From the IMG/VR virus record IMGVR_UViG_3300025872_000001: DNA of 64,000 nucleotides, one strand, 5' to 3'. Below are positions 6,309 through 6,662 of the stretch, piece by piece. The notes beneath the pieces are model-generated. The model was not told the DNA's origin, did no database searches, and worked only from the letters and a program-made list of their open reading frames with translations. The DNA comes from a virus. The number at the start of each line of letters is the position of its first letter. Within the stretch, counting starts at the first letter, position 1. Position numbers and translations under genes: made by a program.

Positions 6309-6471
6309 TTCCTGAAGCTCGACTCGGACTCATAGATAGGTTGAAGATAGCAGCGTAGTTTCTGCTACTAATTTCGTGTTCTTGTTCTCACAACTCATAA
6401 CGCTTATACTACACGTTATGACGTTTTCCTGAGAATAATTGAGATTGGCCTCGTAAAGCTATGGGCAGGAA
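6309..6471 (+). ncRNA. structured ncRNA of unknown family, copy 1
   Basis: non-coding, inside tRNA array; shares 5' and 3' scaffold with copy 2; seven stems, several with compensatory changes. Confidence 0.8.
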
Positions 6472-6494
6472 TTCATTTTTTGTTCTTTTTTATT

Positions 6495-6662
6495 TTCCCG
6501 AAGCACGACTCGGACTCGTAGATAGGTTGAAGATGCTGACCGTAACACGTTAGCACTAATCTCAGTGTCATTACGCTCCAGCTTCCTTGTTAGGTGTTAC
6601 GAGCAAGGAAAAATGCTCTGTGTGATGAATGGAGATTAGCCTCGTAAAGCTATGAGCGGGAA
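6495..6662 (+). ncRNA. structured ncRNA of unknown family, copy 2
   Basis: paralogue of 6309-6471; loops CGTAACAC (6541-6548) and GTGTTACG (6594-6601) are perfect reverse complements. Confidence 0.8.

Follow-up and report, generated by a model that had tools for sequence, protein, structure and literature searches.

Two paralogous units in the tRNA operon of a large freshwater phage belong to an undescribed family of structured RNAs

The tRNA operon and its 378-nt gap

The window, by which we mean the whole 64,000-nt stretch of DNA that was analyzed, derives from a large and uncultured phage of fresh water, the genes of which include rIIA, rIIB, endonuclease VII, and terminase, and which encodes two proteins of more than 2000 amino acids. 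Blastn and megablast searches against the INPHARED phages gave no relative, neither for the units described here nor for positions 1–12000 of the window; freshwater metagenomes of many studies hold near-identical DNA. In this rII-bearing phage, a tRNA array with homing endonuclease genes as neighbors lies 27 kb from the terminase gene. On the + strand, the order of the operon is Gly(UCC), Arg(UCU), Met/Ile2(CAU), and, after a gap of 378 nt, Lys(UUU). The gap contains two units, A and B, in tandem. No ORF of at least 40 amino acids overlaps 6212–6673 on either strand, and no tRNA or tmRNA was called in 6292–6669 by ARAGORN or with the Rfam tRNA clan. The features are as follows (R1 is the covariance model of the next section):

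6216–6291, + strand: tRNA-Met/Ile2(CAU), the upstream neighbor (ARAGORN; Rfam, 75.4 bits)
6292–6308, + strand: leader/spacer ATTTTTGTTCTTTCAAT, local tRNA-trailer context outside the RNA family
6309–6475, + strand: unit A (type A), 167 nt including the 3' tail UUCA (R1, 169.9 bits; alignment)
6476–6494, + strand: spacer with the repeated leader, TTTTTGTTCTTTTTTATT (sequence reading)
6495–6666, + strand: unit B (type B), 172 nt including the tail UUCA (R1, 134.8 bits)
6670–6744, + strand: tRNA-Lys(UUU), starting 3 nt past the tail of unit B (ARAGORN)

The original prediction had placed two units here, each behind the leader TTTTTGTTCTTT, and the sequence bears this out for both units (6309–6471, or 6475 with the tail, and 6495–6662, or 6666) and for the leader in front of each. 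The leader itself, however, belongs to the tRNA spacer: it also stands before an unrelated RNA in the sister phages L006/7/8/20 and is missing in types C, D, and E of the family, and it is therefore a local element and not part of the RNA. The slot turns over fast, with a different RNA or a small ORF in its place in sister phages, and the unrelated second RNA suggests that such arrays are hotspots of exchangeable RNA cassettes.

Homologues and their distribution

Homologues were sought with exact-pattern scans on the conserved single-stranded segments, in IMG/VR, in JGI/NCBI metagenomes, and in viral contigs. Eight further copies were found in seven other contigs, giving 10 copies in 8 contigs and five sequence types, which are listed here with their source and the order of units and tRNAs:

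Type A: unit A of the window (unit-unit-Lys) and L001 (IMG/VR, a close relative of the window)
Type B: unit B of the window and L046 (JGI/NCBI metagenome contig; unit-Lys, as at unit B)
Type C: L040, L042, and L045 (JGI/NCBI metagenome contigs; Lys-unit-(promoter-like TTGACA)-Thr) and L054 (128-kb viral contig G001; unit-Thr)
Type D: L041 (JGI/NCBI metagenome contig; unit-Lys-Thr)
Type E: L059 (138-kb viral contig G033; Thr-like-unit)

The units range from 158 to 172 nt in length, and the covariance model R1, which was built from nine copies, scores members at 75–190 bits. The remaining pattern hits (L002, L003, L037-39, L043, L044, L047-52, L055, L060-64) all fell in coding DNA, were rejected by R1, and are regarded as chance.

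The family is small. About five independent lineages are represented, since type A is related to type C and hardly any differences separate L040, L042, and L045. The window, G001, and G033 have 8–18 proteins in common at 25–70% identity (mostly 30–58%), and L040 and L041 share proteins mutually and none with positions 1–16000 of the window. The carrier phages are thus only distantly related, if at all, and the copies span at least three or four phage backgrounds. When R1 was run against 30 IMG/VR records with a related rIIB, six of them at least 90% complete, none of the 30 had the RNA, which is therefore dispensable for that lineage; the family is rare and sporadic in its distribution. The terminase large subunit (TerL) of the window was not found in G001 and G033, both of which are incomplete records. 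Among the gene contents compared, no protein gene co-occurred specifically with the RNA; the genes that carriers have in common, encoding an SNase-like nuclease, a metallophosphoesterase, and PhoH, are also widespread elsewhere.

Secondary structure and covariation

The two scaffolds that had been noticed before are shared by units A and B, with 92.5% identity over about 40 nt at the 5' side and 91% over about 35 nt at the 3' side, and the stems P1, P2, and P4 are nearly identical. The middles cannot be aligned, and they fold alike: both MFE folds consist of a terminal stem, a short hairpin with an 8-nt loop, and a long interrupted hairpin. The parts of the two units, all on the + strand, are:

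Unit A
6309–6314 with 6466–6471: P1, UUCCUG/CAGGAA; pair 5 is U-A in 3 copies and C-G in 7
6315–6328: J1/2, AAGCUCGACUCGGA, conserved 14-nt one-sided bulge; 11 of 14 positions invariant in 10 copies, partly demanded by the search pattern
6329–6335 with 6459–6465: P2, CUCAUAG/CUAUGGG; 98.6% paired, three pairs changed on both sides
6336–6347: J2/3, AUAGGUUGAAGA, conserved junction strand; invariant in all copies, pattern-demanded except in L054 and L001
6348–6367: P3 hairpin, UAGCAG/CUGCUA, with the 8-nt loop L3 CGUAGUUU at 6354–6361; five of six pairs changed on both sides
6368–6448: long arm (helices 4–7 of the alignment analysis), with P4 formed by 6368–6375 and 6441–6448
6382–6438: P5, with the apical loop L5 at 6403–6413
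6408–6412: ACUAC of L5, pairing with GUAGU of L3 at 6355–6359 (loop-loop analysis)
6449–6458: J4/2, CCUCGUAAAG, conserved junction strand; GCCUCGUAA the same in all 10 copies and absent from the metagenome search pattern
Unit B
6495–6500 with 6657–6662: P1; 6501–6514: J1/2 (coordinates from sequence)
6515–6521 with 6650–6656: P2; 6522–6533: J2/3; 6640–6649: J4/2 (sequence)
6534–6555: P3 hairpin, UGCUGAC/GUUAGCA, with L3 CGUAACAC at 6541–6548 (MFE fold)
6556–6639: long arm, with P4 formed by 6556–6563 and 6632–6639, and P5 at 6569–6627
6594–6601: apical loop of P5, GUGUUACG, a perfect 8-nt complement of L3 (p 0.00035)

The exchanges between the two units that had been said to preserve pairing were found at their coordinates in P1 (TTCCTG/CAGGAA versus TTCCCG/CGGGAA), in P2 (CTCATAG/CTATGGG versus CTCGTAG/CTATGAG), and in a third helix (CTAATTTC/GAGATTGG versus CTAATCTC/GAGATTAG). 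Across the family, the terminal stem P1 has 5–6 bp and one U-A to C-G exchange, and P2 has 7 bp with U-A/C-G/U-G and A-U to G-C exchanges. The P3 hairpin has 6–7 bp, with exchanges at five of six pairs and a loop L3 of 7–10 nt; P4 has 8 bp. P5 is three-part, and the P4-P5 arm comprises about 24–30 bp, interrupted by internal loops at conserved positions. Types A, B, and C, though unrelated in the sequence of the arm, keep its length of about 29 bp and the places of its internal loops, which points to a geometric constraint.

In the unfitted MAFFT alignment (A3), 92.2% of the cells pair, in comparison to 38–46% when the partners are slid by 1–3 columns, and 22 of 48 pairs show changes on both sides; none of 500 shuffles reached these values. 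The covariance-model alignment of all 10 sequences (A4) gave 95.4% paired cells and 30 of 47 compensatory pairs, values that are model-fitted and lean towards the structure. Read from the opposite strand, about 30 G-U cells would turn into A-C mismatches, so that the RNA is assigned to the strand of the tRNAs. Taken alone, the MFE z-scores are modest, with –1.7 for A and –3.1 for B, and single copies spanning –1.7 to –3.1. L001 has one C-U mismatch in P2.

As the 3' strands of P1 and P2 are contiguous, these two helices should stack and leave J1/2 (consensus AAGCWCGAYUCGGA), on the 5' strand between them, as a one-sided 14-nt bulge. P2 opens into a three-way junction, the strands of which, AUAGGUUGAAGAU and GCCUCGUAAWG, are nearly invariant; altogether, about 35 nearly invariant unpaired nucleotides surround the multi-helix junction. 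The search patterns demanded ATAGGTTGAAG, and the metagenome scan additionally ACTCGGA, so that ascertainment partly accounts for the constancy of J2/3 and of a portion of J1/2. Nevertheless, a 3' pattern with neither of these motifs also retrieved L054 and L001, and GCCUCGUAA and GAAGC.CGA are invariant though never demanded in the metagenome scan.

Several further elements were considered and rejected. A local 3' hairpin, CUCGUA-AAGC-UAUGRG, that would replace P2 fits nine copies, but its 5' strand is invariant, it has no double change, and it carries an A-C mismatch in L059, whereas P2 has exchanges; P2 was therefore accepted as the better supported helix. The RNA may, however, switch between the two, which use the same 3' strand. 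For a pseudoknot between J1/2 and J2/3 (CGAYU with GGUUG), the only informative variants are mixed, with L054 keeping and L059 breaking it, and the same holds for a 5' hairpin CCYGA/UCGG. An AAA in J4/2 resembling a "Lys specifier" is AAU in L041, and a mini-ORF starting from an AUG in J2/3-P3 has AUA in type A and would yield, in our own reading, unconserved peptides of 3–14 aa.

Around the units, the Rfam 15 collection (4227 models) gave only the flanking tRNAs at gathering thresholds, and at E≤10 only these and a junk snoRNA match over the inter-unit spacer; the units in five homologous loci gave no match at E≤10 either. The stems and the loop-loop pairing both covary in the homologues. The proposal of a structured RNA family absent from Rfam is thus supported, and every sequence statement of the original prediction proved correct at its coordinates.

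These data also bear on the view that the units are a feature of the DNA, such as a duplicated spacer, the relic of a mobile cassette, or a target of homing endonucleases, conserved through recent common descent. The fast turnover of the slot and the adjoining homing endonuclease genes could be read in this way, and so could the ends of A and B, which look homogenized by recombination, and the chimeric L046, in which A-type ends enclose a B-type middle. However, compensatory changes, strand-specific G-U pairs, and loop-loop covariation are signs of selection at the RNA level, and the family occurs in phages with almost no common proteins, so that we consider this view nearly negligible. The near-identical stems of A and B with their unalignable middles, together with the L046 chimera, rather suggest within an RNA family that the unit ends have been homogenized by recombination, or that the middles have been swapped as cassettes, each with its own L3/L5 pair.

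Pairing of loops L3 and L5

L3 finds its Watson-Crick complement in L5, the loop at the tip of the long arm. The complements that had been pointed out in the window, GTAGT (6355–6359) with ACTAC (6408–6412) in A and CGTAACAC (6541–6548) with GTGTTACG (6594–6601) in B, are indeed present, and the pairing recurs in every type:

Type A: GUAGU/ACUAC, shuffle p 0.037
Type B: CGUAACAC/GUGUUACG, shuffle p 0.00035
Type C: UGUAGC/GCUACA, 8 bp with two G-U, shuffle p 0.001
Types D and E: UGUUUC/GAAACG, shuffle p 0.15 for type D

For these four different pairings, the loop-shuffle p values combine (Fisher) to 3e-6. In an unbiased scan of the whole unit, the longest Watson-Crick partner of L3 was located in L5 in 10 of 10 copies, tied in D and E with a stretch of J2/3. 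The loop pairs of A and C differ by a single compensatory exchange of U-A to C-G.

Such a pair could form within one molecule or between molecules. In the latter case, L3 of one molecule would bind L5 of another, hand in hand, to form closed dimers or rings, and the differing loop pairs of A and B would stop the paralogues from mixing. The loop pair covaries freely (four sequences) on a fixed scaffold, which is the pattern of intermolecular specificity loops, and the A and B pairs, with 5 and 8 bp, are near-orthogonal in one genome. Moreover, with L3 on a 6-bp stem and L5 at the end of an arm of about 29 bp, the geometry is awkward for intramolecular pairing. There are precedents as well: ROOL and GOLLD, phage RNAs found near tRNA islands, build homo-oligomeric cages (PMC12286853), and large assemblies are possible for RNAs of less than 200 nt (bioRxiv 10.64898/2026.07.01.735769). 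However, the covariation fits intramolecular and intermolecular pairing alike, and a fold-back at the conserved P5 bulges would give helical columns of about 22–26 versus 20–22 bp (own count). As the columns would then be similar in length, intramolecular closure should be feasible, too. We slightly favor pairing within one molecule, and self-assembly, the strongest of the rival readings, appears doubtful to us.

Proposed biogenesis within the tRNA operon

All copies are located at most 65 nt, and usually 2–8 nt, from a tRNA-Lys(UUU) or tRNA-Thr(UGU). The CCA-AUUU spacers that separate the tRNAs of the phage have a parallel in the tails of the units (UUCA-UUU, UCAA-UUU, and UUAA-UUU). The RNA would be co-transcribed with the tRNAs from the + strand and excised by the enzymes that mature them: by generating the 5' end of the tRNA that follows, RNase P would cut 2–8 nt past the unit, and trimming by endo- and exonucleases at the AU-rich spacers of the CCA-AUUU type would finish the ends and leave a stable RNA. 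As the RNase P cut of tRNA-Lys would alone create the 3' end of unit B, the tRNA maturation machinery offers the simplest likely route of biogenesis. Contigs from public RNA libraries (X18-X20, X15), compared with 5900–7300, covered only conserved tRNA segments of other organisms, with many mismatches, and no part of the units.

Alternatively, the RNA could be a new self-cleaving or processing ribozyme that frees itself and the neighboring tRNAs without host nucleases. The roughly 35 nearly invariant unpaired nucleotides around the junction would suit an active site, most loci place the unit 2–8 nt from tRNA ends, and the succession of P1, internal loop, P2, and junction loosely resembles twister-sister; HDV-like theta ribozymes adjoining phage tRNAs provide a precedent (PMC10879173). 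However, none of the models of HDV-like/theta, hammerhead, twister, twister-sister, pistol, and hatchet ribozymes matched any unit at E≤10, and the only HDV-like match (E 8.3) was at 6773–6842, outside the units. The spacing to the adjacent tRNA varies (2, 3, 17, and 65 nt), L041 has no tRNA immediately upstream, and the tRNA-type spacers (CCA-AUUU, UCA-UUU) suggest processing by ordinary nucleases. With about 165 nt and a long variable arm, the RNA would also be large for a small self-cleaver, and we consider a ribozyme improbable.

Still less probable is a purely cis-acting structured spacer that would guide or insulate processing, or shield the operon RNA from exonucleases, and have no role after its release. 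Such an element would be expected inside tRNA operons, where all copies lie, and the type C unit, which is the last before a promoter of the TTGACA type, could protect tRNA-Lys as a stable 3' structure. However, a protective hairpin needs neither some 35 invariant unpaired nucleotides nor a covarying loop pair. In addition, the units are found upstream of, downstream of, and between tRNAs, and close relatives lack the RNA.

Proposed function and its implications

We consider it most probable, with a probability of about 0.6, that A and B represent two paralogous genes from a new and rare phage family of structured RNAs of about 160–170 nt in tRNA operons, which would be excised by tRNA enzymes and in which L3-L5 pairing would shape a partner-binding core. 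In such an RNA, the pairing would lock both arms and thereby set the geometry of the single-stranded junction core, and during infection a conserved partner would bind to this core as the working surface; the partner could be a protein of the host or the phage, or a further RNA. A stable trans-acting RNA of this kind is proposed with low confidence. The close association of the RNA with tRNA-Lys(UUU) and tRNA-Thr(UGU) suggests a target in the world of tRNA and translation or in counter-defense.

The rival explanations rank in the order of self-assembly, self-cleaving ribozyme, cis-acting element, and DNA-level relic. A bolder formulation that covers the first two, namely that the RNA of about 165 nt assembles itself through a programmable L3-L5 pair into closed dimers or rings, with paralogues kept orthogonal by their loop code, or that the junction constitutes the active site of a new class of ribozyme, is possible but tentative. 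If true, a self-assembling RNA of this size would be a miniature counterpart of the ROOL and GOLLD cages or of the pRNA rings.

Orphan structured RNAs recur in phage tRNA islands (T4 RNA C/D, ROOL, and GOLLD), and their biology has been unsolved for up to fifty years. The present family is a handy object of study in that it is small, clearly structured, and tractable, with a compact conserved core, and the RNA is small enough for crystallography or cryo-EM. The natural compensatory variants of the loop-loop pair and the two orthogonal paralogues in one genome make the question of intra- or intermolecular pairing directly testable, and the linkage to tRNA-Lys(UUU) and tRNA-Thr(UGU) provides a handle on function in tRNA biology or counter-defense.

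Comparison with known systems

In purine riboswitches, a three-way junction with a closing stem carries two hairpins with pairing loops, and conserved strands form the pocket. Unlike these, the phage RNA does not lie in a 5' UTR, has very unequal arms and variable loop sequences, and has no Rfam match. The pRNA gene of phi29-like phages, which are small podoviruses, lies next to the packaging genes at an end of the genome, and the pRNA belongs to the packaging motor. In contrast, the RNA described here lies in tRNA arrays of large phages, has no match with the Rfam pRNA model, and has very unequal arms and a large conserved junction core. The likeness concerns the predicted layout: a three-way junction with two mutually complementary loops that covary between members characterizes the phi29-family pRNAs (PMC4201828), and these elements recur in the present family. 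The HDV-like theta ribozymes are likewise non-coding elements adjoining phage tRNA genes (PMC10879173), but the units have no nested double-pseudoknot core, no match with the HDV model, and more than twice the size.

ROOL and GOLLD are, like the present family, orphan structured RNAs with a loop-loop theme; they occur in phages and prophages, often beside tRNA islands, and their kissing-loop contacts, at first interpreted as lying within one molecule, were later seen to hold homo-oligomers together (PMC12286853). However, with 580–800 nt, they are three to five times larger than the units of 158–172 nt, which have another secondary structure and no Rfam match.

By place and arrangement, RNA C and RNA D of phage T4 (species 1 and 2 RNAs) are the closest analogues. 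These RNAs of 139 and 119 nt lie in tandem at the end of the tRNA cluster, on the tRNA strand, just as A and B are tandem small RNAs inside a phage tRNA operon, and the window phage, like T4, has rIIA, rIIB, and endonuclease VII genes. For decades, no role has been known for these two T4 RNAs (PMC3014915; PMC9697503). R1 gave no match on the tRNA/rnaC/rnaD region of T4. A tRNA-type T arm (GGGUUCGAAUCCC) and an acceptor-like stem distinguish T4 RNA C from the units, in which no GGUUCGAAUCC-type arm is present, and T4 RNA C and D are not mutual paralogues with a common scaffold. Resemblances to T4 that were seen by eye (UCGGACU and GGUUGA) turned out to be unsupported. Likenesses in place and layout are thus found without homology or model matches, and the RNA therefore belongs to none of T4 RNA C/D, ROOL/GOLLD, and phi29 pRNA, but forms a new family among the orphan structured RNAs of phage tRNA islands.

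Contents of the tRNA-Lys slot

In the closest relatives (the IMG/VR relative L001 and the metagenome contig L046), insertion of a promoter-bearing small ORF separates the RNA unit from tRNA-Met, and the tRNA-Ile to tRNA-Lys slot of L004 and L016 is occupied by a small ORF that differs from it. In sister phages, this slot holds a second non-coding RNA candidate of ~155 nt that is unrelated to units A and B.

L001:11693-11925, small ORF that has a TTGACA-type promoter of its own, between tRNA-Met and RNA unit (also in L046, upstream of 6653)
L007:14856-15026, second RNA candidate, between tRNA-Ile and tRNA-Lys (identical copies in L006, L008, and L020)
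L058:12087-12212, homologue of the second RNA candidate (73% identical), in the tRNA array of phage G001 (128 kb)

The leader ATTTTTGTTCTTT also stands before the second candidate of the sister phages, which has an MFE z-score of -4.0, a terminal stem CCCUCUC/GAGAGGG, and no match in Rfam. The contents of the slot in the tRNA array are subject to rapid turnover.

Further elements of the tRNA arrays

The 17-tRNA array of G001 also encodes a tmRNA (Rfam, 91.8 bits), and ARAGORN called tRNAs with four-base anticodons in G001 (cctg) and L046 (atag), which may be frameshift-type or otherwise odd tRNAs.

L058:11166-11542, tmRNA of G001
L058:8659-8735, four-base-anticodon tRNA of G001
L046:3804-3896, four-base-anticodon tRNA
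L059:10040-10115 (= L065:1674-1745), atypical tRNA-Thr(UGU)-like gene, immediately upstream of unit E
Window 6745-6930, non-coding stretch 3' of tRNA-Lys

Immediately upstream of the G001 unit, ~330 nt appear to be non-coding (L058:7700-8197, 3' end ...CCCGGCCA); this stretch had no match in Rfam and could be a further RNA. The tRNA-Thr(UGU)-like gene next to unit E was detected by Rfam (44 bits) and not by ARAGORN, and unit E is flanked by more tRNA-like matches, all of them sub-threshold.

The last ~65 nt of the non-coding stretch at 6745-6930 comprise a hairpin (CACUGGC...GCCAGUG) and a U-run downstream of it. This segment is conserved at 94% in L046:7006-7072 and at 82% in L059:5827-5887, where it lies between two tRNAs of an unrelated phage. 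It probably serves as a terminator or as a processing hairpin. Noise is the likely source of a weak HDV-like Rfam match (E 8.3) at 6773-6842.

Genes and composition outside the arrays

Positions 16000-24000 of the window form a GC-rich island (0.49-0.51 vs 0.35-0.42 in the segments on either side).

Window 26100-28398 and 4644-4997, gene group: metallophosphoesterase, two unknown proteins, and a phrog_16527 protein
Window 44746-51213 and 54457-61080, two giant ORFs (2155 and 2207 aa), structural module

The gene group is shared, at 25-55% identity, by G001 (at 42-46 kb) and the 138-kb G033, the two other large phages with the RNA, and its presence is not restricted to RNA-positive phages. Both giant ORFs show partial similarity to one and the same G001 protein.
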